DNA from: an uncultured Pelagibacteraceae bacterium
Lineage (GTDB): Bacteria > Pseudomonadota > Alphaproteobacteria > Pelagibacterales > Pelagibacteraceae
DNA length: 64,000 bases
Reading direction: 5' to 3'
NCBI GenBank assembly: GCA_902627565.1
Contig: CACOJM010000007.1
Location: forward strand, 52 to 64,051
The position numbers and the translations under genes were made by a program. A model generated the notes under the pieces. It searched no databases. It saw only the letters and a list, made by a program, of their open reading frames with translations, and was not told where the DNA came from. Positions 46,357-63,948 of the stretch are shown in pieces. Position 1 is the stretch's first letter. Every line of letters starts with the position of its first letter.

Positions 46357-46656
46357 TTATCTCAAGATACTCATAGGATCATAATAACAATCCATTTGCT
46401 CTATTGTTTCAAAAAATATTTGATTTAATTCAGTTGAATGATGAGTTGGACAAATATTTACAGCATTTAAGTTATTTATATAATCATTTTTTACTTTATT
46501 GATCGCTAATGAGCTAGATAAAGATGATGTAGCTTGCAAAACACTTCCAGAATGAGCAAAAGTTAAACTTGGGCCAACCATTGCACTATATTGTGTGCAA
46601 TTATTTAAAATTGGCAACAAAAGAATTATTAAAATTATTTTTTTCACAAAATTCAA
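46357..46656 (-). CDS. Hypothetical small lipoprotein
   Basis: Hydrophobic N-terminus ending ILNNC; TTG start. Confidence 0.55.
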   Translation of the reverse strand: MNFVKKIILIILLLPILNNCTQYSAMVGPSLTFAHSGSVLQATSSLSSSLAINKVKNDYINNLNAVNICPTHHSTELNQIFFETIEQMDCYYDPMSILR

Positions 46657-46695
46657 CTTATATAAAAATTTTAAATTTAAAATGCTTAAATTTAT

Positions 46696-46705
46696 CCAAT
46701 TTGGG
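46696..46705. promoter_or_regulatory. CCAATTTGGG motif copy 1
   Basis: The same 10-mer recurs at 54922-54931 (reverse complement) and 63939-63948; all copies are intergenic. Confidence 0.5.
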
Positions 46706-46744
46706 TTTTAAATCCGAATTTTTTTTTATATTTACTTAAGTGAG

Positions 46745-48964
46745 TTAAAATGTGCCAAAAATTTCAAGATTTGCACCGTAATCAGGGATTTTACTAAATA
46801 AACTATAGTTTGAATTTAATTTTAAATTAAAATTACCCATTTGTTTTAGATAACTGACTTTCGTATTATTATTATTTGTTGGGTCATAAATTACATCAAA
46901 ATTTGCATTTTGTTTATTTACGTTACCAAACTTAATGAACAAACTATCTTTGTGACCACTTTTGTCCAGACTTTGAAATCTTTCATAGTTAATTGCAATT
47001 GTACGACCATCTAAACTCATATATTCAAAACCTATATTCCCTTTTACATTGTGTAATGAATGGTTATTTATAGTTTTTTTAAGAGTAATATTATCCACAT
47101 GATTTTTTACATAATGATCAATGTTTGGTGTTAAGTCATAAATATATTCAATAAATCCATTTCGACTTATAGTGTCATCATTTAAATATAAGATATTGTC
47201 AAATTTCAAACCTGCAGAAATATTTCCTGTTTTAAATGTAAGACTCTCGTGACTTTCAACGCTATTAGAGACAACACCAAAATCGGTATAATCTGAAAAT
47301 TGAGTAATTCCCATTTCAAGCTTTCCAAATGGAATTAATTCATATTTGGTATACTCATTTTCATTTTCATAGCTCATTGACGTATAAATTTGTTTTCCAT
47401 TTCTTTTACCTGTAACCTGATCTTTGCCTAACTGGTCTATCATTAAATAACTAGCACCAAATAATAAATTAAGATTTGACCGGTTTTTTAGAGGTACACT
47501 ACTGTATATATTCAGAGAAAACGTTTGTGCATCTAATTCATCACTTGACCCATCATCTATATCAACCTCGTCATTACCGTATCGAAATGCATAACCAAAA
47601 ATCTTTTTATCTACTAATTTGTCCGAACCAAACATAATACCTCTAGTCTTAACTTCCTTAGGTTTAGAGGATGCTGTATCACCAACTCTTCCAAATGAAA
47701 TATCTACGTGTGACCAGTAAGACCAATTCTTTTTATTTATTTTAGAATTTTCTTTTTTTAACGATGCTTGAGTATATTCAATATTATCTAATGAATTTTC
47801 TAAGTTCGTTTTCAATGCTGCTAAAATTGGATTATGAATATTCAATTTAACTTCATGATTAGTTAAATTAGCTCTTTCATCGTTTCTCCGTAACCATTCA
47901 AATCTTTTGAAAATTGTTGAAGAGTTTTGATGAATTACATTTTTAGCAATTTCTACTTGAGCCCCTATTGCTGTAACAGCATCTGTTTCACATATTACAA
48001 TTCCATAAGGACAAACTAAATCATATTCATATACTCTATCGAGATCACCTGATGCATCAATTTCGTACGTTGTCTGATAGAGTTTCATTCCGTCACTAGA
48101 AAAGCCTAATCCAATTGGAGTTCCTATTCCACCTGATGCATCAAAGAAATTTGTTATACTCCCAACAAAAGTTGCTGTGCTTGTATGAAAAGGTGTCGAT
48201 AATTTATAGACAGCAATTTTGGCATTAGCATTTGCGGATGTATGAGAGTCAATTACATACATTCTTGTTCCATCATCATCAAATTCTACATCTTGTTCGA
48301 ATAATGAAAGTTTACTAGTAACAACTAATTCATTTACAAAAGTTGCTGTGGATGGAACAAAAGGAGTGCTTAAATCATATTCCACCACTCCTCCATCTGC
48401 TATCTCATTATCACCACCATCGACAAAATACATCTTAGTTCCATCATTATTAAATGTGATATCACGTGGTCTAACATCCCCATCACCAGCACTAAATGCA
48501 GTTTTATAATCACTAACTCCATCATCTGCATCTTGTGAAAAATTTGAGATATCATACGGAGTAGTCAGAGTATGAATATTAAATGTACCGTTTTGACTTA
48601 TAACAAAAACTTTTGTCCCATCACTATTAAATTCATGACCTTGAACAAAAGTACCTACATCATCAGATCCAGCATCCAAATTTAATCGAACCTCAGAAGA
48701 AGTATCCATTGTGCTAATATCGAAAGGTGTAGTTAAAGTAAATTGACGTATAAAAGCAAAACCCGTTTCATTAGTAAAATTAGTGAAATGAATTTTTGTT
48801 CCATCTGGACTTAAAGTAACATCTGCTGGACCACCAATATCATCACCAGTAATATCAGTTACAGAAGCTGATTGCTTAAAAACTGGCATAACTACTGCAA
48901 ATGAATTTGAGGTTAAAACAAAAAAAGAAATAATGAAAATTTTAAAAAATATCTTCTGAATCAT
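46745..48964 (-). CDS. Autotransporter-like surface protein with beta-propeller passenger
   Basis: Signal peptide; five xxDGTK-type blades with L(S/T)TP(F/Y) repeats; C-terminal amphipathic beta strands; terminal Phe. Confidence 0.7.
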   Translation of the reverse strand: MIQKIFFKIFIISFFVLTSNSFAVVMPVFKQSASVTDITGDDIGGPADVTLSPDGTKIHFTNFTNETGFAFIRQFTLTTPFDISTMDTSSEVRLNLDAGSDDVGTFVQGHEFNSDGTKVFVISQNGTFNIHTLTTPYDISNFSQDADDGVSDYKTAFSAGDGDVRPRDITFNNDGTKMYFVDGGDNEIADGGVVEYDLSTPFVPSTATFVNELVVTSKLSLFEQDVEFDDDGTRMYVIDSHTSANANAKIAVYKLSTPFHTSTATFVGSITNFFDASGGIGTPIGLGFSSDGMKLYQTTYEIDASGDLDRVYEYDLVCPYGIVICETDAVTAIGAQVEIAKNVIHQNSSTIFKRFEWLRRNDERANLTNHEVKLNIHNPILAALKTNLENSLDNIEYTQASLKKENSKINKKNWSYWSHVDISFGRVGDTASSKPKEVKTRGIMFGSDKLVDKKIFGYAFRYGNDEVDIDDGSSDELDAQTFSLNIYSSVPLKNRSNLNLLFGASYLMIDQLGKDQVTGKRNGKQIYTSMSYENENEYTKYELIPFGKLEMGITQFSDYTDFGVVSNSVESHESLTFKTGNISAGLKFDNILYLNDDTISRNGFIEYIYDLTPNIDHYVKNHVDNITLKKTINNHSLHNVKGNIGFEYMSLDGRTIAINYERFQSLDKSGHKDSLFIKFGNVNKQNANFDVIYDPTNNNNTKVSYLKQMGNFNLKLNSNYSLFSKIPDYGANLEIFGTF

Positions 48965-48970
48965 GTTGGA

Positions 48971-51022
48971 TTATTTTTTCTTTATTAATTCAGTATTATT
49001 TATATTAATAGCCATACAAGTAATATCATCTCTTAATTTTTCAGCACCCCAATTTAACTCTTTCTCAATTGACTCAACAATAGTCTTTGGTGTCACTTCG
49101 GACATACTATCTATAATCTTTTGTACTCCTTCGGCTCCTAATTCTTCACCATTTTTTAAATAGCCTTCCGTTACACCGTCAGTATAAACAACAAATGTCT
49201 TATCTTTTAGGTTCATAGTATTGGATTTAACCATAGACTCTGTAAAATATTTAACAATTCCAATGGGTGGCATTTCTGACTTTATATATTCATAATTTTT
49301 ATTTTGATCAAAAGTTAAAATACTTTCGTGCCCTGCATTAATAAATACGAGTTCTCCAGTTTTGATATTTAGTTTTCCAAAAACAGCAGTTACAAACATC
49401 CCTTTAAATTTTGCCTCAACAAGCTCATTGTTCACTCCAAAGACAACTTTTTCTAAAGGGAATTTTAAATTAGTAAGTGTTCTAAATATTGACGATGCTT
49501 TTGCCATATACATACCAGCTTTAACTCCTTTTCCTGATACGTCGGCTAATGTAAAAAAGTACTCTTCTGGTGTTGCTCTTACCACATCAAAATAATCTCC
49601 TGATACATCTCTTGCTGGTACGTTTTTGGCAAAGATAAAGTTTTCAAATTTTGAGATATCTGGAAATAAACTTTTTTGAACTCCAGCAGCTAATTCTCTT
49701 TCTTTCAAAAGTTTCGCTTCTTTTTGTAAATTATCTAAAGCAATTTTATTTTCCTCAATAAATCTAAAATAAAGACCAGTTAAAAAAGTAATTGTAACAA
49801 TAAATATTGGATAACTCATATCAATAAGTTCAGATCTAAATTTATAGATAGAAAATCCAATAATTATTATTGCTAAAAGATTTCCAAAGAAAATAGATAA
49901 ACTATATTTCGGTTTTATTTTTTGAGAAAGAATGAATGTGATTAAAGCTACAATAATTGAAAATAATAACTCAAAAATATAAGTGTTTGGATTTCTAATT
50001 AAATAAGATTGATCTAAAATATTTTCAATTACATTCGCATGAACTTCTACTCCTGGAACAGTTACTCCTAAAGGAGTTTTAACTAGATCGAACAGTCCTT
50101 GGGCAGATGCTCCTATTAAAACATATTTATCTTTAAAAAAATCTGATTGAAATTTACCATCATAAACATCTCCAGCAGAGATATATTGTTTTTTATCTGA
50201 TTTTTTATATTTGATCCAAATTATACCATTAGGGTCTGAACTTATCTTATAAGGTCTTGCACTTATTCTATTAATCCCAACTTCATTTAATTCTACATAA
50301 ATATTTTTTTGATTAGACCCAACTCGAACCATTTCAAGCCCCATAGTTGGATATAGTTTTTTATTAAATTGAACAATAAGAGGTAAAGATCTTATAATTC
50401 CATCTAACTGATCTAAAAATGATATTGAACCTAATCCTTTTACGTCTTTTTCTAATATTTCAAGAGATCCAATTGAATAAGGGTATGAGTAAGTAAATTG
50501 CTTTGGATCTCCTCCTTTAGACAAAAATCTTGCTTTTGCTTTTCGATCATAATTGGAATGGGAAGGAACATTGCTTCCTAAAACTGCAATTATTGATTTA
50601 GACTCTTTTAATTTTTCAGAAAAGATATCATCAGGACCTTTTAATTTTTGAAGTTCAGCAACATCAGAAGGTATTAAATCGTAAGACTTAATTATTTCAT
50701 CAGGTGACTGTTTATCTTTTTCAGTAAAAAAAATATCAAACCCAATCGCTTTAGGGCTTGATGTATTGAGTTGATCAAGTATTTTTGCAAAGACATTTCT
50801 GTTCCACGGGAATTGTCCAAATTTTCCTAAACTCTCTTCATCTATATCAATAATTACAACTTCACTATCTTTTTTTTCTGCGAACACTTTTTGATAAAGA
50901 TCAAAACTAAGATATGAAACTGATTTGATAAATGAAGGATTGATTATCTTTAAAGAAATAAGAAGTAAAAGAACCAGTAAGAAAATTAAATAATTCTTGT
51001 GTTTTTGGAAAAATACTCTCAC
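48971..51022 (-). CDS. CHASE2 sensor fused to a SpoIIE/RsbU-type PP2C phosphatase
   Basis: CHASE2 motifs (IIDIDEESL..GQFPWNR, IGFDIFF, DGIIR, VLIG, TP..PGVEVHA), three TMs, then VSGDYFD, ADVSGKG, NAGH, YTDGVTE, DDIT. Confidence 0.9.
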   Translation of the reverse strand: MRVFFQKHKNYLIFLLVLLLLISLKIINPSFIKSVSYLSFDLYQKVFAEKKDSEVVIIDIDEESLGKFGQFPWNRNVFAKILDQLNTSSPKAIGFDIFFTEKDKQSPDEIIKSYDLIPSDVAELQKLKGPDDIFSEKLKESKSIIAVLGSNVPSHSNYDRKAKARFLSKGGDPKQFTYSYPYSIGSLEILEKDVKGLGSISFLDQLDGIIRSLPLIVQFNKKLYPTMGLEMVRVGSNQKNIYVELNEVGINRISARPYKISSDPNGIIWIKYKKSDKKQYISAGDVYDGKFQSDFFKDKYVLIGASAQGLFDLVKTPLGVTVPGVEVHANVIENILDQSYLIRNPNTYIFELLFSIIVALITFILSQKIKPKYSLSIFFGNLLAIIIIGFSIYKFRSELIDMSYPIFIVTITFLTGLYFRFIEENKIALDNLQKEAKLLKERELAAGVQKSLFPDISKFENFIFAKNVPARDVSGDYFDVVRATPEEYFFTLADVSGKGVKAGMYMAKASSIFRTLTNLKFPLEKVVFGVNNELVEAKFKGMFVTAVFGKLNIKTGELVFINAGHESILTFDQNKNYEYIKSEMPPIGIVKYFTESMVKSNTMNLKDKTFVVYTDGVTEGYLKNGEELGAEGVQKIIDSMSEVTPKTIVESIEKELNWGAEKLRDDITCMAININNTELIKKK

Positions 51023-51080
51023 TACACAAATCTATATTTAATTTAAATAAAGTAAATAAATCTTAATGAAAAAGTACTAA

Positions 51081-52352
51081 CTACTTCTTTCTTCTTCTTT
51101 TCTTCTTAGCTTTTCTCTTCTTAGCTGCTTTTTTCTTTTTAACTATTCTTTTCTTTTTAACAACTTTTTTCTTTTTCTTAGGTTTTTTCTTAACTACTTT
51201 TTTCTTTTTCTTAGGTTTTTTCTTAACTGCTTTTTTCTTTTTCTTAGCTGGTTTTTTCTTCACTGCTTTCTTTTTAGTAGCTTTTTTCTTGACTGCTTTC
51301 TTTTTAGTAGCTTTTTTCTTCACTGCTTTTTTCTTAGTAGCTTTTTTCTTAGTAGCTTTTTTCTTTTTACCTTTTTTCTTTTCAGCTTTAGCTTTTTTCT
51401 TTTTACCTTTTTTCTTAGTAGCTTTTTTCTTTTTACCTTTTTTCTTTTTGCCTTTATCTAATGCTGCATCTTTTTTAGCTTTTTTCTTTTCTGCTTTAGC
51501 TTTTTTCTTAGCTTTTTTCTCTGCTCTATCAGCTTTGATTGCTACTTTTTTCTCTTTATCTTTTTGAATATTTTGTTTTATGATTGTTTTAATTTCTTCT
51601 TTTTCAAAGCCCATTTGTTTTAATTCTTTTTTTAAACTTTTTCTTAATTGTTTTCGCTCGGCTTTTGTAGAATCCGGTGAAAGTTTAGCAACTCTCAATG
51701 CCTTCATTTTCTTATTAAATTTTTTTAATTGATTTTTTGTTATCTTTCTAGCTTGGCCTGGCGCCTTTCCTTTTGTCATTGAAGTCATGCTATAAGGATT
51801 ATCTAATAAAGTTTGACCAAATTTATTTCCAACAAGAACTGCTCCTGGTCTCATGCCAAGTGTATTATTTTTTCCAGGACCTACTAATAAAGTATCTGTT
51901 TTTCCTTTTGATACAATGGTTTGAAATTCTGTACCTCTTGAACCTAAAGTTCCTTCTGGTACTTCAACTGTTAAACTGTCAGGATTTTTTTTGCTAATTA
52001 ATCCTGAGATAACTTTTAAACTTCCTTGTTTAACACTTGCAACTATTTTTCCATCATTAGTTGATGGATCAAAAACAAAAGTATCCATTACTACTTCTGA
52101 GTCTTCTCCAATGGTAAAAGTTGATTGATCTAAAAGTAAAATTTGTGTTCCTGATCCTGCTCCAGCAAGAATTGTTTCATTTAAATAAATTTTATCACCA
52201 GCTTTTAATTGCCTAGTTTCGGTTTTGACAGTACCTGATATAGCACCTACAATTCCAACTAGTTGTTTTTCAATAGTTAATTTTTCCTCTGCATTTGAGT
52301 TTACACTCAATAAGAAAATCAAACCAAAGACAGTTGATAAAATTTTTTTCAT
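51081..52352 (-). CDS. Periplasmic FecR-domain protein with histone H1-like Lys-rich C-terminal tail
   Basis: Signal peptide; GDKIY..E.I...QILLLDQSTFTIGEDS, SGLISK, TLGSRGTEF (FecR-like); last ~123 aa are about 70% K/R. Confidence 0.8.
   Translation of the reverse strand: MKKILSTVFGLIFLLSVNSNAEEKLTIEKQLVGIVGAISGTVKTETRQLKAGDKIYLNETILAGAGSGTQILLLDQSTFTIGEDSEVVMDTFVFDPSTNDGKIVASVKQGSLKVISGLISKKNPDSLTVEVPEGTLGSRGTEFQTIVSKGKTDTLLVGPGKNNTLGMRPGAVLVGNKFGQTLLDNPYSMTSMTKGKAPGQARKITKNQLKKFNKKMKALRVAKLSPDSTKAERKQLRKSLKKELKQMGFEKEEIKTIIKQNIQKDKEKKVAIKADRAEKKAKKKAKAEKKKAKKDAALDKGKKKKGKKKKATKKKGKKKKAKAEKKKGKKKKATKKKATKKKAVKKKATKKKAVKKKATKKKAVKKKPAKKKKKAVKKKPKKKKKVVKKKPKKKKKVVKKKRIVKKKKAAKKRKAKKKRRRKK
51084..51452 (-). 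repeat. Tandem 15/30/33-nt coding repeats (KKKAT/KKKAV; KKKPKKKKKVV)
   Basis: For example, three near-identical 30-mers at 51251-51340. Confidence 0.85.
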
Positions 52353-52472: not shown

Positions 52473-53777
52473 TTAGTTAAGCCTAAATCCTCTTGAGAAA
52501 CTTAAAGACAAAGAATCAGTTATATAATCATAGTTAAGCATATTAGCTTCTGAAAAAAGTCTCTCATATGACAAGTTAATAAATAAAGATCTGTTTGGAT
52601 CGATCTGCGGAAATATGTCCCCTATAGCTTTAGTTAACATAACATCAAAAGTGTTTGTGTAATCTGATCTAATTTTTTTGGAAGTTACAGATGAATCTTC
52701 TTTTTTATAATCATTGAACCCAATAGAATTACTTACAGCAATATAAGCCCATGGAAAGGCAAAATTTACTCCTAAACCAAAATCATAAGTTTCATAATCG
52801 TTACCTGCATCAACTCTGGCATCTGTATCGCTGTATCCTAAACTTAAATTTGTTGAAATAATTGGAGTTAATATAAAATCATGTCCAAAAGTAAAACTAT
52901 GCCCAACAGAATTAGTTTCATTTGCTGTTGTGTCCATTGAATTGTCATTTCCTTTTGAATTAGAGTAAGCATATCCATAACTAAATGAATTCCTTTCACC
53001 AACTGAAAAGAAACCACCTACACCATACATTTTTGAAAAACTGTCTGCATCGTGCTGGTAATCTGATTTACTTAACATTAGGTAGGGACTTAAACTCTGG
53101 TTTCCTAATACAGTATCTAAGGCTAAAGTAAGACCATAACTTTGAAAATCATCGTCACTTTCATAATATTGTTCTGAAAGAGAATGAGAAGCATTAATTA
53201 AAAAAGACGACTCTTCTCCGATAGGTCTTGTTGCTGATATTCCAAGACCACCACTTAAGGTTCTGTCATGCATCGCAGAATTAAAACCAACCACACTTCC
53301 AGACTCTTCTTTGGTTCTTGTTTTTGAAACACTGTTAACATTGTTTGAGAAAAGACTTCCTACTGAAATATCTGCAGTTAAATTCCAAAGGCTCGGTTCT
53401 CTATCTCTTAATTCTTCCTCAATTTCTAATAAAGTTTCTAAATCTTCTTGCTCTAAATCTTTCATCAATTTCATTTCCTCTATAATCGTGTTTGCTTTCT
53501 CAGGAGAGTCAACCTGAACCAAAATCGATAACAGTAATAATTTTATTTCAGTGTTATCAGGATAAAGCATATTAAGTCTTTCAAGTGTAGAAATTGTTTG
53601 TTTGAAATTTCCCATCTTACCTTGTTGTTGGGCGTACTTTAAATTCAAATCTAAATCATTAGGCTTTTGTAAAATTTGCATATAGGTAATATTTTTTTCC
53701 GATGAAAAAACAGAGGTCGTGATCAACAATATAGTTGAGACAAATAATATTTTTATTCTGTTTGAACTTAAAAACAT
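52473..53777 (-). CDS. TPR plus outer-membrane beta-barrel protein (Slam/NsrA-like architecture)
   Basis: Signal peptide; TPR-like PNDLDLNLKYA..TLERLNMLYPDN; SNNVN motif; alternating Gly/aromatic beta strands. Confidence 0.7.
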   Translation of the reverse strand: MFLSSNRIKILFVSTILLITTSVFSSEKNITYMQILQKPNDLDLNLKYAQQQGKMGNFKQTISTLERLNMLYPDNTEIKLLLLSILVQVDSPEKANTIIEEMKLMKDLEQEDLETLLEIEEELRDREPSLWNLTADISVGSLFSNNVNSVSKTRTKEESGSVVGFNSAMHDRTLSGGLGISATRPIGEESSFLINASHSLSEQYYESDDDFQSYGLTLALDTVLGNQSLSPYLMLSKSDYQHDADSFSKMYGVGGFFSVGERNSFSYGYAYSNSKGNDNSMDTTANETNSVGHSFTFGHDFILTPIISTNLSLGYSDTDARVDAGNDYETYDFGLGVNFAFPWAYIAVSNSIGFNDYKKEDSSVTSKKIRSDYTNTFDVMLTKAIGDIFPQIDPNRSLFINLSYERLFSEANMLNYDYITDSLSLSFSRGFRLN

Positions 53778-53823: not shown

Positions 53824-54264
53824 TTAATTACACTCGGATTTGTCGATAGCGCCTGTGTTATCTGTTGTTATTTTACAGTCACCAAGTCCCTTGGCCACGG
53901 CTGTATAAGCGGTCACATTTTGAGTATAAGTACAATATACAAAACCACCCGCTTCAACATCTATGTAATTAGCTTTTCCAAATAATTGGGTTCCAATTGT
54001 AGATGTAGTAGTTGCATTAGCATCGCATTCTTCTTCCGCAGCTGCTGTATCACAATATTCACCAGCAGATGAAAAATATGATGCACAATCAGCATAGTGA
54101 TCTGTTTGAGCTAAGCCGATTTGCATTAAAACGTTTTCAGCTGCTTTTTTTTTTGAGCCTTCTACATAACCATTGTATGAGACAGTTCCAACTGCAGATA
54201 AAATTCCGATAATTGCAACAACAACTAAGAGCTCGATTAAAGTAAATCCCGAGCTCTTAGTCAT
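53824..54264 (-). CDS. Type IV pilin (PilE-like, probably minor)
   Basis: G|FTLIELLVVVAIIGILS class III signal; six Cys. Confidence 0.9.
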   Translation of the reverse strand: MTKSSGFTLIELLVVVAIIGILSAVGTVSYNGYVEGSKKKAAENVLMQIGLAQTDHYADCASYFSSAGEYCDTAAAEEECDANATTTSTIGTQLFGKANYIDVEAGGFVYCTYTQNVTAYTAVAKGLGDCKITTDNTGAIDKSECN

Positions 54265-54278: not shown

Positions 54279-54818
54279 TTATTCTAAAGAAATTGAATCT
54301 TCTACATTATCATTATCACCACTATCAAATTTTGATGTAATTGAAATAGTGTTTCCTGAAGATCCATCAAGTTGAACATAGCCTAAAGCATTTTCACCAC
54401 AGCTTGACTCTGTTTCCGTTTCTGATTCAGTAGAAGCTTCAGCATCACCCTCTGCTTCCATAACTGCCGCACAACCTGTATCGAATGGATTTTTATCACC
54501 CAAAATCGAGTTTTCAGTAACATGTGTTACTACATCAGCCCCAGCTGTACTATCATTTACTGATGATACATAGTCTGAGCAAGCCATACCATTTGAACCA
54601 GTGTTATCTTTTAAGATTGTTGCGCCACTATCTAAGCTACACTTTTTTGTTTCTGCTGCTAGCACTTTAACAACATTAGCATGAATAGTTTTCACTGCAT
54701 TTTTCTTGGCAGCATTTGTATATCCATTGTATGCAACAACACCCACTGCGGCTAGAATACCAATGATTGCAACAACAACCAATAATTCTATTAAAGTAAA
54801 ACCTTTATTGTTTTTCAT
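54279..54818 (-). CDS. pilA: Type IV pilin (probable major pilin)
   Basis: KG|FTLIELLVVVAIIGILAA; GAGGG RBS; own promoter region. Confidence 0.85.
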   Translation of the reverse strand: MKNNKGFTLIELLVVVAIIGILAAVGVVAYNGYTNAAKKNAVKTIHANVVKVLAAETKKCSLDSGATILKDNTGSNGMACSDYVSSVNDSTAGADVVTHVTENSILGDKNPFDTGCAAVMEAEGDAEASTESETETESSCGENALGYVQLDGSSGNTISITSKFDSGDNDNVEDSISLE

Positions 54819-54921
54819 TTTATCCCTCTTTATATTATTTATATTATTATTCTTATTAATAATTTCTAATATGTAAATACTTTTTAAGTGTTTAATAATC
54901 TAACAAAAATAAGTGTTTTTA

Positions 54922-55289: not shown

Positions 55290-55702
55290 TGAACATTCAA
55301 GAATCTAAAGATTTTTTAGTTAGTACTGCTAGTTTAAAAGAAGTACGAACTTTTTCTAGAGAAGTGTTTGAAAAAATAAATTTACCACAAGATCAAAAAG
55401 ATGAACTTGTATTAGCTATTGCTGAAGCTGCTCAAAATATTGTTAAACATGCTTACAAAGATGTTGTTGAAACTTCAGACAGAATGGAAATTAAAATTTC
55501 ACTTAAAGATAAGGATTTAGAAATAGGTTTTTTTGACAAAGGTAAAGCAGTAATACCTGAAAATATCAAACACAGAAAATTAGACGATATTAAACCTGGT
55601 GGACTTGGAACTTTTTTCATCAAGCAGATTATGGATGCTGCTGTTTTTAAAAAAGATCAAAAAGAATGGGTAAACCACTTAGTGCTTACAAAAAAAATTT
55701 AG
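55289..55702 (+). CDS. RsbW/SpoIIAB-like Ser kinase / anti-sigma factor
   Basis: LAIAEAAQNIVKHAY (N box), FDKG, GGLGTFFI; translationally coupled to the STAS gene. Confidence 0.9.
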   Translation: MNIQESKDFLVSTASLKEVRTFSREVFEKINLPQDQKDELVLAIAEAAQNIVKHAYKDVVETSDRMEIKISLKDKDLEIGFFDKGKAVIPENIKHRKLDDIKPGGLGTFFIKQIMDAAVFKKDQKEWVNHLVLTKKI

Positions 55703-56934
55703 CCTATTAATGCTCCAACATTAAAGATTGGAGAGTACATCGCAATCATCAAACCACCGATCATCACTCCCATAAAAACAATCATAATTGGTTCAATCAA
55801 ACTTGACATGTTATCAACTGTTGTATCGAATTCTTCCTCATAATAAGTTGCAACTGATCCAAACATTTCATCTAATTGACCTGTCTGTTCACCAACAGAA
55901 ATAAGTTGGCTGAACGTTGGTGGAAATAAAGGTTCTTTTAAAAAAAGTTTTGTTAAAGTATCTCCTGAAAAAACACCCTTCTTAACATTTTCTAAAGCTT
56001 CAGTTACAACAACATTGTTGCTGACTGATTTTGCAATCTCAATACTCTCTAATAAATTAACGCCCGCTGCACTTAAATTTCCTAGAATTAATGAAATTCT
56101 AGCTAGTAAAGATTTTAAAATCATTTCTCCAAATACTGGTAATTTTAAAATTTGTTTATGCCATCTATATTGAAATGCAGCATTTTTTGTTGTTAAATAT
56201 CTAAAGATAACCACAAATGAAATAATTGAAATAAGCATAACTAATCCACCTGTTCCTCTTAAAAAATCACTCATCGACATAATTACTGCTGTTGGTTTTG
56301 GTAAAGCTAATCCCATACCTTCATACATCTTAGCAAAAACTGGCACTACTTTGATTAACATAAATGCACTGACAGTTATCGCTACGGAAAACATTATTGA
56401 TGGGTACATTAATGCAGATTTTATTTTCTTTTTTATCTTTTCTTTTTTTTCAAGTGAGTCCACTATCTTTAAAAGAAAAACATCTAGTTTACCACTGGCC
56501 TCACCAGCTTTAATTAAATTACAATAAACATTATCAAAATATTGTGGATATTTTTCAAAACATTTAGACAATGTTACACCACCCTCAAGGCTTTTTCTGA
56601 TGTCTTCAATTACTTCTTTAATAGCAGGACTTTCTAATTGATCTCTTAACATGCCTAGAACCTCAAGTATTGGCAGACCTGCCTTTACCATAGTTGCAAA
56701 TTGTTTTGAAAAAATTAAAACGTCCTCTACTTTTACTTTTTTCTTTCCAAATGAAAAACCTGCACCTTTTGCTTTAGTTTTAGCCTCTCCTTTTTTCTTT
56801 TTTGCTCTAATTAGATTAGTAATTATGATTTTTTGTTCTTTAAGTTTATGAGATGCCTCTTCCTGATTAATAGCCTCAATATCACCCGTTACGTATTTCC
56901 CGTCTGCGATACCTTTATATGTGAAAGCTTCCAT
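55699..56934 (-). CDS. pilC: Type IV pilus platform protein PilC
   Basis: QFATMVKAGLP, AGEASGKLD, KSALMYP, VGEQTGQLD, IEP, MYSPIF. Confidence 0.93.
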   Translation of the reverse strand: MEAFTYKGIADGKYVTGDIEAINQEEASHKLKEQKIIITNLIRAKKKKGEAKTKAKGAGFSFGKKKVKVEDVLIFSKQFATMVKAGLPILEVLGMLRDQLESPAIKEVIEDIRKSLEGGVTLSKCFEKYPQYFDNVYCNLIKAGEASGKLDVFLLKIVDSLEKKEKIKKKIKSALMYPSIMFSVAITVSAFMLIKVVPVFAKMYEGMGLALPKPTAVIMSMSDFLRGTGGLVMLISIISFVVIFRYLTTKNAAFQYRWHKQILKLPVFGEMILKSLLARISLILGNLSAAGVNLLESIEIAKSVSNNVVVTEALENVKKGVFSGDTLTKLFLKEPLFPPTFSQLISVGEQTGQLDEMFGSVATYYEEEFDTTVDNMSSLIEPIMIVFMGVMIGGLMIAMYSPIFNVGALIG

Positions 56935-56953: not shown

Positions 56954-58705
56954 TTATGAAGCTGATAAAACCCGTTCATACTCCCTAAAATTAAGCTCCC
57001 CATTCGCAATTAGTCTTCTACCCATATCTTGCATGGTTTGAAAACCCTCTTTTATTGCAATTTCTCTTAATTCAGGTGTTGTTGCCTTTCTAAGTATTGC
57101 CTCTTTAACAGGTTTTGAAACTACCAAAATTTCATAAAGACCCTGTCTTCCCTTATAGCCAGTATCTTTACATTTAGCGCAACCTTTTCCTTTTACAGCT
57201 TTTACTCTAGAAGCTTGTTCTGGAGAAAAACCTAAATCCTGTAAAACCTTTGGATTAACATCGTCGTCTGGAACCCTACACTCTTTGCAAGTTCTTCTTG
57301 CTAATCTTTGTGCTAAAACTAATTGGCAAGCAGCACTAATTAAATAATCAGGTGTTCCCATATTTTGTAATCTAGTAATTGTGCTTGGAGCATCATTGGT
57401 GTGCAAAGTACTAAATACTAAGTGTCCTGTTAATGCAGCTTTTAATCCTATATCAACAGTTTCTTTATCTCGCATCTCTCCAACTAGAATAATTTCTGGG
57501 TCTTGTCTTAAAAAAGATCTTAATGCTGCAGCAAAACTTAGTCCAATGTCGTCTTTTATCTGTACCTGTCCAACACCATCTAATTCATATTCTACCGGAT
57601 CTTCGGCTGTTAAAATATTTAAATGAGGCTTACTAACTTCTTTTAAGATACTATAAAGAGTTGTAGATTTACCAGATCCAGTTGGTCCAGTTACTAATAT
57701 TAATCCTTGAGTTGAATAAATCGCTTTTCTTAAATTTTTTAAATCTGCATCTTCAAAGTTTAGTTGTTCTAAAGTAATGTCTCCAGCATCTTTGTTTAAT
57801 ACCCGCATTACTATTCTCTCATTATTAGCTGTTGGTAAAATTGATAATCGTAAATCAACAACCTTTCCATCAATTTTAAAATTTATTGCTCCGTCTTGTG
57901 GTAATCGTCTTTCAGCAATATCTAATTTACCCATGATTTTAAATCGGGTTACTACTGCTCCATAATTATCATGAAGAAATTGTTTATATTGCTCTTGTTC
58001 TGTTAGCATTCCATCTAAACGATATCTTACTCTTGAAGAGAACCTGTAAGGTTCTATATGAATATCACTAACTCCTGATTTGATTGCTTCTGCAACAACT
58101 GCTGTACTAAATTTTATAACTTCAGACTCATTCTCTATAGCTTCTATATCTTCTTCAGGAGCTTTTTCTAAAACTTCACCTGCTTCACCTAGATCAGATT
58201 CAAAAGTTTTAGTTTTTTCCTTATTTTCTTTTCTAATTGTTGCAGTTGTAACATCTCCACTTTCCGATTGAAGTTTTTCTATAAATTCTGAAATCTGAGA
58301 TATCTTAGCAGCATGTAATTCAATATTTTTTTTTGTTATCGCTTTTAAATTTCTCATTAGACCAAGTTTTGAACTGTCAGAGATTGCAATATGAAGAGAT
58401 TTGCCTTCAACTTTAAATGGAGCTACAAAATTTACATTTATGTAATTTGAAGGTAGAACACTTTTAATTTCATCACTGATTTGAATTTTTGAAAGATCAA
58501 CAACTTCAAGACTCTGCTCTTTAACTAATACATCAAGGATTTTATCCTCATCTGTAAGCTTAAGTTCAAAAACTGCGTCTATCTGAGATTTATTTCCTTC
58601 AGTGCTAATTTTTTTAATGTTTATTAAATCTTTTCCAGAGATAATATCATTATCAATTAATACATTTATTAAGTTAATTTCACTTTCTCTACTAATTTTA
58701 AGCAT
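56954..58705 (-). CDS. pilB: Type IV pilus extension ATPase PilB
   Basis: SDIHIEP, ERRLPQDG, GPTGSGKSTT, EDPVE, LRQDPE, TGHLVFSTLHTN, tetra-Cys zinc motif. Confidence 0.93.
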   Translation of the reverse strand: MLKISRESEINLINVLIDNDIISGKDLINIKKISTEGNKSQIDAVFELKLTDEDKILDVLVKEQSLEVVDLSKIQISDEIKSVLPSNYINVNFVAPFKVEGKSLHIAISDSSKLGLMRNLKAITKKNIELHAAKISQISEFIEKLQSESGDVTTATIRKENKEKTKTFESDLGEAGEVLEKAPEEDIEAIENESEVIKFSTAVVAEAIKSGVSDIHIEPYRFSSRVRYRLDGMLTEQEQYKQFLHDNYGAVVTRFKIMGKLDIAERRLPQDGAINFKIDGKVVDLRLSILPTANNERIVMRVLNKDAGDITLEQLNFEDADLKNLRKAIYSTQGLILVTGPTGSGKSTTLYSILKEVSKPHLNILTAEDPVEYELDGVGQVQIKDDIGLSFAAALRSFLRQDPEIILVGEMRDKETVDIGLKAALTGHLVFSTLHTNDAPSTITRLQNMGTPDYLISAACQLVLAQRLARRTCKECRVPDDDVNPKVLQDLGFSPEQASRVKAVKGKGCAKCKDTGYKGRQGLYEILVVSKPVKEAILRKATTPELREIAIKEGFQTMQDMGRRLIANGELNFREYERVLSAS

Positions 58706-60244
58706 CTATAAAATCCTCGGTGCAATAAATACTAATAATTCATCCATGTTATCAGTATTTTGTTTGCCTTTAAATAAATTTCCAACAACAGGTACATTTC
58801 CTACTCCTGGGGTTTGCTGCTTACTATTTGTTAATGCATTCTTTTTAATACCACCAATAACTACGATATCCCCATCGGCTATTAGTAATTTAGTACTAAT
58901 TTCCATTTTATTAATTGCAGGATCTCCTGGGTTAGATCTATTTGGCGTATCATTGTTCACTTGAATATCTAAAAGAACATTACCATCACCAATTATACTC
59001 GGCGTTACTGTCATTTTTAGAGCTGCCTCCTTAAATGAAGTATCAGAACCTTCCGCAGAACTTGAGGCATAAGGAATTTCCTCACCTTGAGTAATAGTTG
59101 CAACCTGATTATCTAAGGTAAATATTTTTGGATTGGAAATAGTTTTTCCCATTCCTTGAGACTCTAAAGCAGTTATTTCTGTTTTTAAAACTGCTGATCC
59201 AGTTTGTTTTAATATACCAATACCACTTGTCTTACCTGCTGCTGTAAAGTCAGTAAGTGAATCTAAAGTATTTGCTAAGTTAGCTGTTCCCGATGAACGA
59301 TCTACGTTTCCAGTTGATCCAGCTTGCACACCTCCTATAACTTCACCCTCTCTTTTGTAAAATCCACCGAGCCTCGTGCCCAAAGCTCTTTCAAAATCAG
59401 AGTTTGCCTCAACTATAAAAGCTTCGATTAATACCTGTTTAGTCCTTACATCAATTTCTTTTATTATTTTATCTACGACATCTAAATCTTTTTCTTTTCC
59501 CCTTGCAATAATTGATCTAGTGGTTTTTTCTTCAGTAAATTGTACTAAAGAAATTCCTCCTTCAGCAGCCTTAAACAATTCATCTAAAGTAGCTTTAGCT
59601 TCAGCAGGACTTATATAATAAAGTCTAAAAATTTCTGAAATCAGTGGCTCTACTGAGTCCTCTAATTCAACTTTTTTTCTTACAGCTGATGCTCTTGCTG
59701 ATTTTGTAGACTCTTGTTGAGTTAAATTTGATGGAGAATGAACTCGAATTAAATTACTTTGCACATCAAAGTCTGCTGCATAATTTTTTAAATCTAAAAG
59801 AGCATTGAATGCTTTATCCCAAGGGATATCAATCAATTGAGCAGTAACTGATCCAGCAACCTCATCTCCTATCAAAATATTTATCTCACCAGCTTTTGCC
59901 ATTAGTTCAATTGCAGTTCTATAATCTAGATTTTGGAATTTAAAAGACACACTTTGTTTTAGTAATTTATATTCATCACCAATTAATAAATAATTTCTAG
60001 TTTTTTGAGAGGAAATTTGTTTCCTTTTACCAAGTTTGATTACATCTCCTTCGGCTGGTTGGGGACCCATTGAGGCAGTTTTATCTACTTCTATCTTACC
60101 TTTCTTCTTAATATCATCTTTAATAAGAGGGGTGTTATGTTTAAACTTTTTCTTACCAAAATTAGGGTCTGTAGCACATCCACTCAAGAGCAAAGATGAT
60201 ACAAAACTGAATAAAATTAAAAATTTTAATCTTTTAATATTCAT
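58706..60244 (-). CDS. pilQ: Secretin PilQ, short lipoprotein form
   Basis: LLLSGC lipobox; PWDKAF; QVLIEAFIVE; QGEEIPY; VIGG; ELLVFIAPRI. Confidence 0.9.
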   Translation of the reverse strand: MNIKRLKFLILFSFVSSLLLSGCATDPNFGKKKFKHNTPLIKDDIKKKGKIEVDKTASMGPQPAEGDVIKLGKRKQISSQKTRNYLLIGDEYKLLKQSVSFKFQNLDYRTAIELMAKAGEINILIGDEVAGSVTAQLIDIPWDKAFNALLDLKNYAADFDVQSNLIRVHSPSNLTQQESTKSARASAVRKKVELEDSVEPLISEIFRLYYISPAEAKATLDELFKAAEGGISLVQFTEEKTTRSIIARGKEKDLDVVDKIIKEIDVRTKQVLIEAFIVEANSDFERALGTRLGGFYKREGEVIGGVQAGSTGNVDRSSGTANLANTLDSLTDFTAAGKTSGIGILKQTGSAVLKTEITALESQGMGKTISNPKIFTLDNQVATITQGEEIPYASSSAEGSDTSFKEAALKMTVTPSIIGDGNVLLDIQVNNDTPNRSNPGDPAINKMEISTKLLIADGDIVVIGGIKKNALTNSKQQTPGVGNVPVVGNLFKGKQNTDNMDELLVFIAPRIL

Positions 60245-60740
60245 TTGCCTCTCTTATCTGATTTTTAAAATTCATAATAATGTATTTACTATCTCCATCC
60301 TTTTCAAAAACAGCTCGTTTAATATCTACATCAACAAGCTTAACGCCACTTAAAACTTCTTCAAATAATTCTATAGTCATAAATTCACCATTATCATCTA
60401 CTAAGGTTATGAAACTATTGTCTTGAGCAGAAAATGATCCAACAAGTTTATAAGATCTTAATTTAACAGCGCTTGATGTAGGTGTGGATGCAGTTACTAT
60501 ATCACTTGCAGTAGATGCGTCTCCAGCAAAAGGATCATTCAACGGCAAAGGTTCTTCTTCAATTACAACTGAACCTGTCTCATTATTTATATTATTTTTT
60601 TGAGCTGCCTGTTTTTCTTTTACTTTTTTATTAATCTCTTTTGCTTTATCTACGATATTTTGATCGTGATTATCTGCCACGACTTTTTGTGCAAAAGTAA
60701 AGATCATTAGTATTAAAATTATGAGCCTAAAAAAATTCAT
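60234..60740 (-). CDS. pilP: PilP-like protein
   Basis: DPF motif, YKLVG beta domain, position between pilO and pilQ; no lipobox Cys. Confidence 0.65.
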   Translation of the reverse strand: MNFFRLIILILMIFTFAQKVVADNHDQNIVDKAKEINKKVKEKQAAQKNNINNETGSVVIEEEPLPLNDPFAGDASTASDIVTASTPTSSAVKLRSYKLVGSFSAQDNSFITLVDDNGEFMTIELFEEVLSGVKLVDVDIKRAVFEKDGDSKYIIMNFKNQIREANEY

Positions 60741-61422
60741 CTGGTAAACCCACTATTGTTAAAACTCCATTTACAACTACCGTACTGGTTGTATCCCCTT
60801 TTATCACTTTAATTGTTTCTTTGTCAAAATTTAACATCTTTTGAGACATGGCCACTTGTCGTTTAAACTTGATATATCCAAGAAAATTGCCCTTTATTTG
60901 AAAATCTACAGGTATTTTATAATACGCAATGTTTTTTTTAGCCTTTGTGTCAACTTTTTTCTTCTTTTTCTTTTTCTTTTTCTTTTTTTCTGTAGATGCC
61001 ATTGCTGAGGCCTTAGTAATTGCTTTTGGCTTACCTTTTTCAATTTTTGATATAACCAAATTATTTAATCCAGCAAATTCACTTAGGGTCTCATATAAAC
61101 CCTCTACTTCTGCTTTACTATGAAAGAGCGTAGAATAATTTTCGTATCGAGGAGTAAGTTTCTTAATTTTTGCTTTATTGTTTGAGATATCTTTGTTCAT
61201 CTTTTCAATTTCAGCCTGTTTTTTTTGCATATTATCAAGCTGAGCTTTTTTCTTATCAACAATAGGATTAAGAACAGTATAGAATATAATTAGGAATAAA
61301 ATTACAGATCCAAAACCAATCCCAAATTTTATTAAAGTTTTTTTATCTATTGATTGAATTTTGGCCTTAATACTTTCTACATTTATATTCTTCAAATCTA
61401 AATTAATGTTTTTTAAATCCAT
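60727..61422 (-). CDS. pilO: PilO-like alignment protein with poly-Lys insert
   Basis: TM, coiled coil, YYKIPVDFQIKGNF; position in the pilMN-O-P-Q series. Confidence 0.8.
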   Translation of the reverse strand: MDLKNINLDLKNINVESIKAKIQSIDKKTLIKFGIGFGSVILFLIIFYTVLNPIVDKKKAQLDNMQKKQAEIEKMNKDISNNKAKIKKLTPRYENYSTLFHSKAEVEGLYETLSEFAGLNNLVISKIEKGKPKAITKASAMASTEKKKKKKKKKKKVDTKAKKNIAYYKIPVDFQIKGNFLGYIKFKRQVAMSQKMLNFDKETIKVIKGDTTSTVVVNGVLTIVGLPDEFF

Positions 61423-61425
61423 AAA

Positions 61426-63846
61426 TTATCCTTTAACATCTATTATTACTGTAAAGTTCTTTTTAATATCTGCAGAGTCTCCTGCTTTACCCTTAAAATT
61501 CATATTTCCTAGTGAAGCTTGGGTAACTAATTCTTGAGCTCCCAAATTATTTATTAATTTTAAAATATCTTGATCTGTTGCAGCCTGACCTTTTATTACT
61601 ACTCTATTTTTTCCATTATAATCAACGGAGTCAAATTTTATTCTTTTTGGAACACTCATAGCAACTTGTGCTAAAACTCTGTAACTAATTTTTTTATTTG
61701 ATTTAAGGCTATTGCTTAATTTTAATGTATTCGAAATTACCGCTAGTTCTTTTTTAATTTTCTTTTGTTCAGCTTTTTTTATTTTATGAGTTTTTAGTAC
61801 TTTGTCGTAGTTAACTAACTTTTTATTGTAAGAATGAATGTTCCAAAAAGATAATGCAAAAAGGAATAAATATACTGCTGCAACTGTAGCTGTAATTCCC
61901 TTGAAAGCAAAATTTGAAAATGCTTTCATCTTTTTCTCTTTGATCATTCCTTTTCGATTAGGTAATAAATTTATATTTTTGACAGCAGTTACAAATTTAT
62001 AATAACCAAAGACGTCTAATTTTCTAAAAGCAAGACCTATTACTGAAGATAAATAAGATCTATTAGGCAAATCAACTTTATCTTTATTTTGTTGAGGAAT
62101 TAATAATCCATCCATTGGATCGAATAAATTAAAACTTACGTTTAGTAAAATTTTTCTAAAATTAGCTAAATAATCTTCAACATTCTGTAAATCAGAAACA
62201 ACTTTTATATTTCTAATTCTTTTTTCATATTTAGTTTCAAAGTCTTGAACAGCTTGTTTTACTTGTGTTATAAATCTTCTTACAAGTGCTTCTTTTTCTT
62301 CGGCATCTTGAGACTCTAATAGTATTTTTCTGTCTTGCCCTCGTAAAAAAATATCAGTAATTATTGGATTATTATCATATAAAATCATTAGATAATTTTC
62401 ATCTAAACCAAACTCTAAAACTGCAGTTAGATTTGCATCATCGGCTTTATTTGAAATTTGATTTATCTGATCTACTGCAGATTTTAATGCAAAACATTTT
62501 ACATCAATTATAACTGGGTTGAGATTACTTTGTTTAATGATTGAAGTATAATTATTTATATCAGCTAGTTTTGAGGCAACAAATAAAATATCCATTGTAT
62601 TTGCTTTTTCATTTCTATTTATTACCTGGTGAAAAATTGAATAGTCATCCAAGTTATCAGTTAATTGAACTAAATTTTCCCAAAGTGAATTAGTTTCTAT
62701 TGCTTTTTGCAATTCCTCTTCCTTCATTAAAGGCGCAGTAACAACTCTTATAATTGCACTCGTAACAGGTATAGCTATAGCAGCATTAAGAGTTGAAATT
62801 TTAGACTTTTGTAATGCAATTGAAAGTTCAGCTCCTAATTTTTCTCCGTTATCTAAAACATTTGCATCATCTGGAAGATCAACTGAATGAACATAAAATT
62901 TATCTAATACCCATTGATTTGATTTGTTTGTTGAAACTTGAGCTAATCTGATTTCTTTATTTGTAATTTCTACACCAACAATTTCCTCACCTTTTACTGA
63001 TGACTTACCAATTTTAGATTTGAAAAAATTTCCAACTTTTTTTGTAAGCTCACTTGTTTTTAAAGATTGTGGTGAGCTAGAACTTTTTTTAATAAAATCT
63101 GGTTTTTTAAATTTAATTTTTTTTAGATTATCTAGAAAAGCAAACTTAGATTTCTTTTCTTTTGTAACATCTTCTACAACTTGGCTTAAATTTGCAGTGT
63201 CATCTTTTTTTGGTTCTGATGTTACAATTGGTTGACTTGTTTCTTGAGGTTTTTCAATTTCGTTCGGAGTTTCTAATTGAGTAGAAGATTGTTCAGTAGT
63301 AACGTTTTGCTCAACAGTAGTAGTTTGTTCTGTAATTTCTTTTTCTTTAGCCTGACCAGAAACTACATCATCAAACCATTTTTCTAAAATAGGAATTGCT
63401 TCTTCTAAATTTGGAGTTCCCGATGATGAAATTTTTTGTTTTCCCTCATGATAAAGTCGTCCAACCCAATTTTTTGACTTTAATTCACCTTTATATTTGT
63501 CTTGTCGAACATAAATATGCAATCTTCCATCTTTTTTGTGGATCACTTCACGTCCTGGACTAACCTCTTCCTCTTTCGTTTCACTCGAAACGCTAGAAGT
63601 TTGTTGATCTTCATTATTTTGAGTTTCTAAATTCTGATTAATACCTTTTTCTTCTGAGGAAATATCATTATTTTGGTTTTGATCATTATTTTGATCATCA
63701 TTTACATTCCCATCAGTAGTGGAGTCGTTATTTTGAGTTTCTACACTTTCAGGTTGATCATTTTTATCAACTGATGGTTGATTTTCAGTCTCTGACTGAG
63801 ATGAACCCTCATCAATAATTTTTTTATCGTCTTCTTGGTCGCTCAT
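61426..63846 (-). CDS. PilM-PilN fusion with a ~285-aa N-terminal extension
   Basis: IVGVEI..EIR..Q (PilM start, ~aa 287), AAIAIP, IIDV..FAL, then INLLP + TM + IKGQA (PilN, from ~aa 624). Confidence 0.85.
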   Translation of the reverse strand: MSDQEDDKKIIDEGSSQSETENQPSVDKNDQPESVETQNNDSTTDGNVNDDQNNDQNQNNDISSEEKGINQNLETQNNEDQQTSSVSSETKEEEVSPGREVIHKKDGRLHIYVRQDKYKGELKSKNWVGRLYHEGKQKISSSGTPNLEEAIPILEKWFDDVVSGQAKEKEITEQTTTVEQNVTTEQSSTQLETPNEIEKPQETSQPIVTSEPKKDDTANLSQVVEDVTKEKKSKFAFLDNLKKIKFKKPDFIKKSSSSPQSLKTSELTKKVGNFFKSKIGKSSVKGEEIVGVEITNKEIRLAQVSTNKSNQWVLDKFYVHSVDLPDDANVLDNGEKLGAELSIALQKSKISTLNAAIAIPVTSAIIRVVTAPLMKEEELQKAIETNSLWENLVQLTDNLDDYSIFHQVINRNEKANTMDILFVASKLADINNYTSIIKQSNLNPVIIDVKCFALKSAVDQINQISNKADDANLTAVLEFGLDENYLMILYDNNPIITDIFLRGQDRKILLESQDAEEKEALVRRFITQVKQAVQDFETKYEKRIRNIKVVSDLQNVEDYLANFRKILLNVSFNLFDPMDGLLIPQQNKDKVDLPNRSYLSSVIGLAFRKLDVFGYYKFVTAVKNINLLPNRKGMIKEKKMKAFSNFAFKGITATVAAVYLFLFALSFWNIHSYNKKLVNYDKVLKTHKIKKAEQKKIKKELAVISNTLKLSNSLKSNKKISYRVLAQVAMSVPKRIKFDSVDYNGKNRVVIKGQAATDQDILKLINNLGAQELVTQASLGNMNFKGKAGDSADIKKNFTVIIDVKG

Positions 63847-63867
63847 TTACAACTCATATTTTTTTTC

Positions 63868-63922
63868 TCTAACACAAATTAACGAATCTCTAACACAAAA
63901 AACAAAATTAGTCTAACACAAA
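63868..63922. repeat. Three direct repeats of TCTAACACAAA upstream of pilMN
   Basis: Copies at 63868, 63889 and 63912 (spacing 21 and 23 nt). Confidence 0.8.
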
Positions 63923-63938
63923 ATTATAAAAAAGATGT

Positions 63939-63948
63939 CCAATTTGGG
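63939..63948. promoter_or_regulatory. CCAATTTGGG motif copy 3
   Basis: TCCAATTTGGG is identical to 46695-46705. Confidence 0.5.

Follow-up and report, generated by a model that had tools for sequence, protein, structure and literature searches.

What would a partner-switching module control from within a type IV pilus locus, and which signals would reach it? SAR11 bacteria rank with the most numerous bacteria of the ocean and are noted for having very few regulators. The question is raised by a 64,000-nucleotide stretch of DNA (here termed the window), which makes up almost all of one contig (C7) of a metagenome-assembled genome of "Candidatus Pelagibacter" (~1.03 Mb, 85% complete, ~30% GC content). 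In the window, genes predicted to encode an RsbW-like kinase and a STAS-domain protein of the anti-sigma-factor-antagonist type are embedded among type IV pilus genes, and a gene for a CHASE2-PP2C membrane phosphatase lies in the same locus. The explanation favored here, with modest confidence, is that these genes encode a phospho-switch resident in the pilus island, which is fed by interchangeable sensor PP2Cs and has pilus production or activity as its most likely target.

The STAS/RsbW-like pair and the pilus island

Pfam and NCBIfam scans, together with a listing of open reading frames (ORFs), recovered all of the pilus, pilin, and signaling genes that an initial annotation of the window had named. 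A type IVa pilus set (PilM, N, O, (P), Q, B, and C, with pilins) is encoded in one locus together with the STAS/RsbW-like pair, as follows.

61426-63846, minus strand: PilM-PilN fusion, 806 aa (PilM_2, E 1.6e-17; PilN, E 3.6e-5; NCBIfam pilM)
60727-61422, minus strand: PilO-like protein with a variable poly-Lys linker (weak PilO/T2SSM Pfam matches; position kept in relatives)
60234-60740, minus strand: PilP-like small exported protein, named by position only (kept between pilO and pilQ in relatives)
58706-60244, minus strand: PilQ secretin (Secretin, E 5.1e-41; Secretin_N)
56954-58705, minus strand: PilB assembly ATPase with an MshEN-type N-terminal domain (T2SSE, E 2.5e-123; MshEN, E 7.8e-14)
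55699-56934, minus strand: PilC platform protein (T2SSF, E 3.1e-60)
55289-55702, plus strand: RsbW-like GHKL serine kinase (HATPase_c_2, E 7.5e-19)
54990-55289, plus strand: single-domain STAS protein, anti-sigma-factor-antagonist type, with a DSSG phospho-serine motif (STAS, E 2.3e-15)
54279-54818, minus strand: pilin 1, 179 aa (N_methyl, E 1.5e-10)
53824-54264, minus strand: pilin 2, 146 aa (N_methyl, E 1.1e-8)

The STAS gene starts 171 bp from the pilin 1 gene and diverges from it, as the initial annotation had described, and the stop codons of rsbW and pilC overlap on opposite strands (window 55699-55702). The locus is truncated at the pilMN promoter, and neither PilD nor PilT was found within the window. 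PilB also matched the NCBIfam model type_IV_pilB (E 6.9e-165), at a score under that model's cut-off, and the PilP-like ORF had no family match in the Pfam or NCBIfam scans.

The sequence motifs of the putative switch components were intact. The STAS protein passed the NCBIfam anti-sigma-factor-antagonist model (ant_ant_sig; 67.1 bits versus a cut-off of 53.45), and its phospho-acceptor motif, YMDSSGIS, was kept in all aligned Pelagibacter orthologs. The N, G1, and G2 boxes of the RsbW-like kinase were conserved among aligned orthologs, and the metal-binding motifs of the PP2C (residues D476, D479, D494, G497, K498, G499, D615, G616, D665, and D666) were invariant among 15 orthologs with identities down to 23%. 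Judged by these motifs, the switch components look functional.

The survey of the switch covered 121 genomes of the genus at species level, all with a completeness of 85% or more. The RsbW-like kinase gene was present in 52 genomes (in single copy save for one duplicated contig), any PP2C in 57, and pilC in 59. All of the RsbW-positive genomes encoded both a PP2C and pilC (52/52), and the kinase was found in none of the 62 pilC-negative genomes; these counts come from related genomes and are not independent events. The five genomes with a PP2C and no RsbW were all incomplete. Seven genomes had pilC and no RsbW; these lacked a PP2C as well and carried a separate PilC lineage (64 to 66% identity), in agreement with the "two versions" of the pilus described by others (bioRxiv 10.64898/2026.10.07.757358). 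One switch-less locus, in genome G047, reads 11 pilins-pilC-B-Q-O-MN, with no switch genes; the 11 tandem divergent pilin genes lie directly downstream of pilC (L031:8471-14030). In an order-level search, the kinase was detected in 64 of 130 genomes of this family and in 0 of 20 genomes of the sister family.

The switch genes were also physically linked to pil genes, in two independent arrangements. In about 44 species, a convergent rsbW ends 3 to 20 nt from pilC. In other clades (the divergent clade G013, G065, G093, and G150 and a second genus, G258 and G559), a longer STAS gene, whose product has an acidic C-terminal tail, is directly upstream of and codirectional with pilD, which encodes the prepilin peptidase. 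STAS and pilD of G013 occupy L016:5852-6355 and 6356-7111, and rsbW of this genome is 40 kb from STAS; it adjoins ABC-2 transporter genes, and a gene for a pilT-like ATPase lies ~1 kb away. Because each of the two arrangements sets switch genes against pil genes, hitchhiking alone is harder to invoke. Co-occurrence and gene order together support the assignment of the STAS/RsbW switch to the pilus island, and the linkage of signaling and pil genes on which the initial annotation had relied was borne out for this pair.

No sigma factor was found to accompany the switch. A Sigma70_r2 search of the whole genome gave one match, on contig C4, and none on C7, as the initial annotation had noted for the window. 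Complete genomes with the switch (G013, G102, and G108) and without it (G047) each contained two sigma-70-family genes, with products of ~615 and ~301 aa (RpoD and RpoH sized). The switch has no dedicated sigma factor, and since only these two sigma genes are present with or without it, its output is either a nonsigma target or one of the two housekeeping factors.

Interchangeable sensor phosphatases and the envelope cassette

Three PP2C architectures were found near the locus: CHASE2-PP2C, an ammonium-transporter (Amt)-PP2C fusion (716 and 745 aa), and GAF-PP2C (429 to 456 aa). All three types were carried by genome G008. In genome G128, two tandem Amt-PP2C genes (L029:13868-16018 and L029:16436-18673) lie between the pilins and the conserved Grx/DUF2805/LysE/binding-protein genes. 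The window fills the same slot with the following genes.

52473-53777, minus strand: outer-membrane protein with TPR helices and a 14-strand beta-barrel, Slam-like architecture (AlphaFold2 [AF2] model)
51081-52352, minus strand: exported FecR-domain protein with a ~200-aa Lys-rich tail (FecR, E 2.1e-7; signal peptide and tail from the translation)
48971-51022, minus strand: CHASE2-PP2C membrane sensor phosphatase (CHASE2, E 6.6e-55; SpoIIE, E 4.2e-32)
46745-48964, minus strand: probable type Va autotransporter with a beta-propeller-like passenger, 739 aa (ESM-Atlas look-alikes)
46357-46656, minus strand: orf99, small exported or lipoprotein-like protein, 99 aa (accompanies the CHASE2 cassette)

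A GAF-PP2C gene was also present in the window genome, at the start of contig C18 (L034:244-1593, minus strand). Contig C18 is collinear with the region directly upstream of pilMN in G008; the island therefore extends past the window, and the assembly probably broke within the repeat array that precedes pilMN.

Full-length CHASE2-PP2C was encoded in 34 of the 121 genomes, 33 of which had RsbW (the exception is 87% complete), and when CHASE2-PP2C and pilC were on one contig they were 5 to 24 kb apart. The CHASE2/FecR/TPR-barrel triad was kept, in other gene orders, in G013, G018, G011, and G258, and both the order within the triad and its distance from the pil genes varied among relatives. Based on these arrangements, there are three or more apparently swappable PP2C inputs, of which the CHASE2 triad is one. 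The initial annotation had described the cascade as hard-wired to the pilus, a description that does not fit this modularity or the separate position of the triad in genus g5 (see below).

Among other Alphaproteobacteria, full-length CHASE2-PP2C was encoded in ~18 of 400 genomes (25 to 29% identity). The neighborhoods of these genes were annotated by Pfam scans of the flanking ORFs, as tblastn with the window proteins was too insensitive. In G428, a compact cluster (L049:7239-12714) encodes RsbW-like, FecR, OmpA-like, CHASE2-PP2C, MBL-fold, and STAS proteins in that order. Partial clusters (L048 and L050) were found in G453, where FecR, OmpA, and MBL genes lie beside CHASE2-PP2C, and in G545, where MBL and STAS genes do so and a weak tblastn match to RsbW was obtained. 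No pil or sigma genes were found among the adjacent ORFs scanned in these three genomes, and no description of a compact RsbW-like/FecR/OmpA/CHASE2-PP2C/MBL/STAS module was found in the literature searched. The clustering of CHASE2-PP2C with STAS and RsbW-like genes in distant Alphaproteobacteria supports action of CHASE2-PP2C on the STAS/RsbW pair; it also supports the view that the wiring of CHASE2-PP2C to STAS predates the Pelagibacter island, where a module of known type would have been reused. CHASE2-PP2C/FecR/STAS/RsbW clusters may represent a wider alphaproteobacterial module.

Clusters of CHASE2, FecR, and outer-membrane protein genes are known with other outputs, including CHASE2 adenylate cyclases of Campylobacterota and a CHASE2 histidine kinase operon of Burkholderia (PMC9239204, PMC5192318). 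In Sinorhizobium meliloti, the CHASE2 cyclases CyaD1, CyaD2, and CyaK sense an extracellular plant protein via the outer-membrane barrel NsrA (PMC13001267), which provides a functional precedent for a relay across the outer membrane. The window triad shares with these systems a periplasmic CHASE2 domain between transmembrane helices, an adjacent exported FecR protein, and an outer-membrane partner. It differs from the known triads, whose output is a cyclase or a kinase, in having a PP2C as output, a form also present in other Alphaproteobacteria.

The outer-membrane partner was examined for family membership. Its AF2 model (pLDDT 87.4) consists of helices at residues 32 to 124 followed by 14 strands at residues 132 to 432, and an exhaustive representative search retrieved 445 relatives. 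Among 30 aligned full-length homologs, SlipAM (PF04575) was matched by 7 (best E 3.2e-9), TPR_Slam by 5, and DUF2860 by 6; a quarter matched SlipAM or TPR_Slam. The window protein itself matched none of the Slam models, with no SlipAM match even at E values of up to 10. The protein had ESM-Atlas matches by features and by fold; the fold matches (TM 0.73 to 0.75) included clusters annotated as DUF2860 or SlipAM, with a SlipAM share of 12 to 13%. Foldseek searches of the PDB returned generic barrels of 14 to 18 strands, the best being the 14-strand barrels CymA and OmpG, and a profile search of PDB sequences returned no Slam structure. The likeness to Slam and type XI secretion proteins (DUF560, PF04575) lies in the N-terminal TPR region and the 14-strand barrel; the differences are the missing match to Slam models and the genomic context, in which the usual Slam cargo, with a C-terminal 8-strand barrel, was not found beside the TPR-barrel gene and the FecR proteins matched the FecR model only. 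The TPR-barrel protein thus looks Slam-like in architecture, with remote kinship, and is not an established member of the Slam family. By a search of terms, neither FecR nor CHASE2 is mentioned in two papers on type XI secretion (PMC8406197, bioRxiv 10.1101/2024.09.26.615229). A Slam-like look for the outer-membrane partner of CHASE2 triads is offered here as a general lead.

The N terminus of the FecR protein gave a match of 21.5 bits to the NCBIfam LapA "retention module," a subthreshold lead only (cut-off, 50). In adhesins, the retention module serves as a plug for a pore in the outer membrane. A predicted complex of CHASE2 residues 31 to 350 with FecR residues 22 to 200, computed from custom alignments and without controls, scored at zero, a value that speaks neither for nor against binding.

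Downstream of the triad, the 739-aa protein had no match in direct Pfam or NCBIfam scans. Its ESM-Atlas look-alikes scored 0.99, have beta-propeller passengers, and belong to clusters in which 96 to 100% of members carry the Autotransporter domain PF03797, in agreement with the downstream autotransporter proposed in the initial annotation. One to three paralogs occupy this position in relatives. The product of orf99 likewise had no family match in the Pfam or NCBIfam scans; its orthologs adjoin the CHASE2 cassette in G008, G017, G019, and G023.

Output of the switch

In the favored explanation, the RsbW-like kinase would phosphorylate the serine of the STAS DSSG motif, and sensor PP2Cs, whether membrane bound or cytoplasmic, would strip this phosphate once their sensor domains were triggered. 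Unphosphorylated STAS would then sequester RsbW, bind a nonsigma effector, or do both, and pilus production or activity would be altered. Two inputs can be proposed for the window genome: CHASE2-PP2C, which would probably be given an envelope or extracellular cue via the Slam-like barrel and the exported FecR-domain protein, and the GAF-PP2C encoded beyond the contig end, upstream of pilMN. The initial annotation had likewise held that the PP2C flips the phosphorylation state of STAS and so controls piliation. The first part is plausible, given the covariation of PP2C and RsbW and the clusters in distant Alphaproteobacteria; the second we infer.

Partner switches without sigma targets have been described elsewhere (Hmp, Rba, Syp, and Hsb). 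[quoted passage not shown] Both have in common with the window a PP2C phosphatase, a STAS protein, and an RsbW-like kinase; Hmp also bears on pilus-dependent behavior, and Rba is alphaproteobacterial. Unlike in Hmp and Rba, the kinase and STAS genes of the window are embedded in a pilus assembly locus, the phosphatases of the window and sister genomes are membrane sensors (CHASE2 and Amt) or GAF linked rather than REC linked, and several inputs converge on one kinase in a two-sigma genome.

In Pelagibacterales pilus loci, an antagonist, an RsbW kinase, a PilM-PilN fusion, and type Va autotransporters have been drawn in a preprint of October 2026 (bioRxiv 10.64898/2026.10.07.757358, Fig. S5), which also recognizes two pilus versions. 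Its single passage on a phosphatase is the mention of an Amt-phosphatase fusion in the introduction, and its text nowhere uses the terms CHASE, FecR, or SpoIIE. A literature search on Pelagibacter partner switching and anti-sigma-factor antagonists returned no paper on the switch besides that preprint. Three points are new here: the switch is strictly coupled to a single pilus lineage, its sensor phosphatases are modular, and it has no cognate sigma factor although the genome has two sigma factors. The preprint reports neither this absence nor the co-occurrence counts and input cassettes given above.

Several points weigh against a switch devoted to the pilus. RsbW was the best NCBIfam match of the kinase, with 50.7 bits versus an equivalog cut-off of 145, and on this score the kinase is a member of the superfamily and not an RsbW ortholog. 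RpoD or RpoH may be targets of RsbW, and the Amt-fused inputs could suggest a report of nitrogen status to a nonpilus target. Co-occurrence in close relatives within one variable island can reflect co-inheritance, and a pilus-specific output and any contact of STAS or RsbW with a pilus protein are at this stage proposals. Finally, in genus g5 (G258), 577 kb separate the triad from pilC and rsbW, and it is therefore not obligatorily tied to pil genes; of the signaling genes that the initial annotation had joined to the pilus, STAS and RsbW remained linked in relatives and the triad did not in genus g5.

Alternatively, the switch could regulate physiology in general, such as the nitrogen or energy status of the cell, by acting on RpoD, RpoH, or a metabolic enzyme, and could accompany the pilus only as part of one horizontally exchanged variable region. 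Inputs that include ammonium-transporter fusions and a GAF sensor point to metabolic cues, sigma-less switches elsewhere are pleiotropic (PMC3999984), and Pelagibacter pilus loci are flexible-genome islands (bioRxiv 10.64898/2026.10.07.757358). Such a regulator would not be expected to follow pilC as closely as was observed, with every RsbW-positive genome pilC positive and no RsbW in pilC-negative genomes, nor to keep its adjacency to pil genes, as rsbW-pilC and as STAS-pilD, across two genera; genomes without the switch moreover have the same two sigma factors. This alternative is considered unlikely, although it deserves serious attention.

A more specific form of pilus control, a posttranslational gate, was also considered. 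Here, one STAS phosphostate would integrate three cues: nitrogen status by way of Amt-PP2C, a ligand inside the cell by way of GAF-PP2C, and a macromolecule outside it. PilB, PilC, PilD, or PilT would be bound directly by STAS or RsbW, and FecR would be a new kind of Slam-dependent surface sensor whose variable tail is threaded through the TPR-barrel while its FecR domain contacts CHASE2 in the periplasm. Taken jointly, these three proposals are doubtful.

It is improbable that the CHASE2-PP2C triad acts apart from STAS and RsbW, on another phosphoprotein, as a mere neighboring cassette. Its separation from rsbW and the pil genes in genus g5 and its varying internal order and distance from the pil genes would be in keeping with independence, but RsbW was present in all but one of the CHASE2-PP2C genomes, PP2C was absent from switch-less genomes save the five incomplete ones, and distant Alphaproteobacteria set CHASE2-PP2C beside STAS and RsbW-like genes.

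If the pilus-resident phospho-switch favored here is correct, the switch, confined to an optional island, would be among the few environmental decision circuits of SAR11. It would also provide a handle on when SAR11 bacteria make pili and why, with attachment, phage susceptibility, and nutrient scavenging as options.

The PilM domain, repeats, and intergenic regions

Polybasic and DNA-binding-like additions to FecR, PilO, and PilM had led the initial annotation to suggest a polyanion such as DNA as the signal or cargo of the locus. The features relevant to this suggestion and to the regulation of the pil genes are as follows.

63868-63919: three copies of TCTAACAC(AA) repeats upstream of pilMN, part of a larger array cut by the contig end
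about 63352-63558, minus strand: integrase arm-type-like domain in the N-terminal extension of PilM (residues ~97-165)
54819-54989: divergent pilin/STAS intergenic region, with a minus-strand terminator-like hairpin at 54916-54938 on a CCAATTTGGG motif

The PilM N-terminal domain was 43% and 39% identical to the N termini of two Pelagibacter tyrosine integrases. Its AF2 model comprises four strands and a helix, and weak Foldseek matches included the arm-binding domains of P4-like/HPI integrases (3rmp and 3jtz). In the orthologous regions of G008, G017, and G047, the TCTAACAC(AA) array contains 7 to 8 copies with ~21-bp phasing, in both orientations. A paired TCTAACAC repeat was found in 25 of the 121 genomes, all of which encode the PilM N-terminal domain (25/25); the 93 genomes that lack this domain contained no such repeat, and one match was obtained with the reversed pattern as a control, although the domain and the repeats are adjacent DNA that would be co-inherited in any case. 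The pairing of domain and repeat occurs in pilus loci with and without the switch. The likeliest role of the PilM domain would be the binding of its own promoter and not of cargo DNA, and the pairing suggests a domesticated arm-binding domain that acts on an operator-like array. An integrase arm-binding domain fused to PilM beside such an array is a further general lead; the sites of the domain, repeats, and integrases are window 63352-63558 and 63868-63919, L014:4605-4918, L070:458-1729, and L071:989-2257.

The remaining additions were lineage specific. The FecR tail has 89 to 101 Lys/Arg in its last 150 residues in the close clade (G008, G017, G019, and G023); elsewhere, with the triad kept, it is acidic or Ser/Thr rich in G013 (906 aa) and G018 (511 aa) and absent in G011. 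The poly-Lys run of PilO behaves as a variable linker, which is deleted in G128 and Thr/Glu rich in G047. Competence genes were sought in five Pelagibacter genomes (G000, G013, G102, G047, and G004), of which three are complete and have pilus loci. A search for the ComEC family (PF03772) was positive for 10 of 14 control genomes and for none of these five, of which only G013 had a match to DprA. Pilin 2 matched ComP_DUS with 23.7 bits, under the cut-off of 27.3. A pilus for DNA sensing or uptake, with an envelope triad that senses a polyanion, is the least probable of the alternatives: the conserved Lys/Arg-rich tail in four close relatives, the truly integrase-arm-like PilM domain, and the subthreshold ComP_DUS match favor it, but the tail and the PilO run are not kept in all clades that keep the triad or the pilus, the PilM domain tracks its own-promoter array even in switch-less loci, and the competence genes were for the most part not found in the five genomes searched.

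Exact intergenic copies of CCAATTTGGG were found at window positions 46696-46705, 54922-54931, and 63939-63948 (three, versus 0.2 expected; five genome-wide), and relatives had no copies, exact or relaxed, in their orthologous loci. One copy, at 54916-54938, gives rise to a 10-bp hairpin, behind which the minus strand has a T-rich tail. A role of CCAATTTGGG as a conserved shared operator was rejected, given its absence from the relatives' loci and the terminator-like stem formed by one copy; the copies may be terminator-like hairpins rather than operators. The pilin/STAS intergenic region was poorly conserved in relatives, and its alignment from five genomes contained no conserved element. No terminator-like site was found between pilC and rsbW, and pil transcription on the minus strand would continue antisense across rsbW-STAS until it reached the hairpin that precedes the pilins. 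Transcriptional interference could arise from such antisense readthrough.

The pilin 1, FecR, TPR-barrel, CHASE2-PP2C, pilMN, and autotransporter genes were matched, with 0 to 9 differences, by contigs that two studies had obtained from marine RNA libraries. The very high depth of RNA contigs over 51028-52209 reflects a low-complexity Lys-coding repeat and is not meaningful. These contigs are weakly indicative of transcription in the sea, as they record presence only, without strand, ends, or level, and DNA carry-over is possible. The pilin 1 gene was represented in the marine RNA libraries by a near-identical contig of 552 nt.

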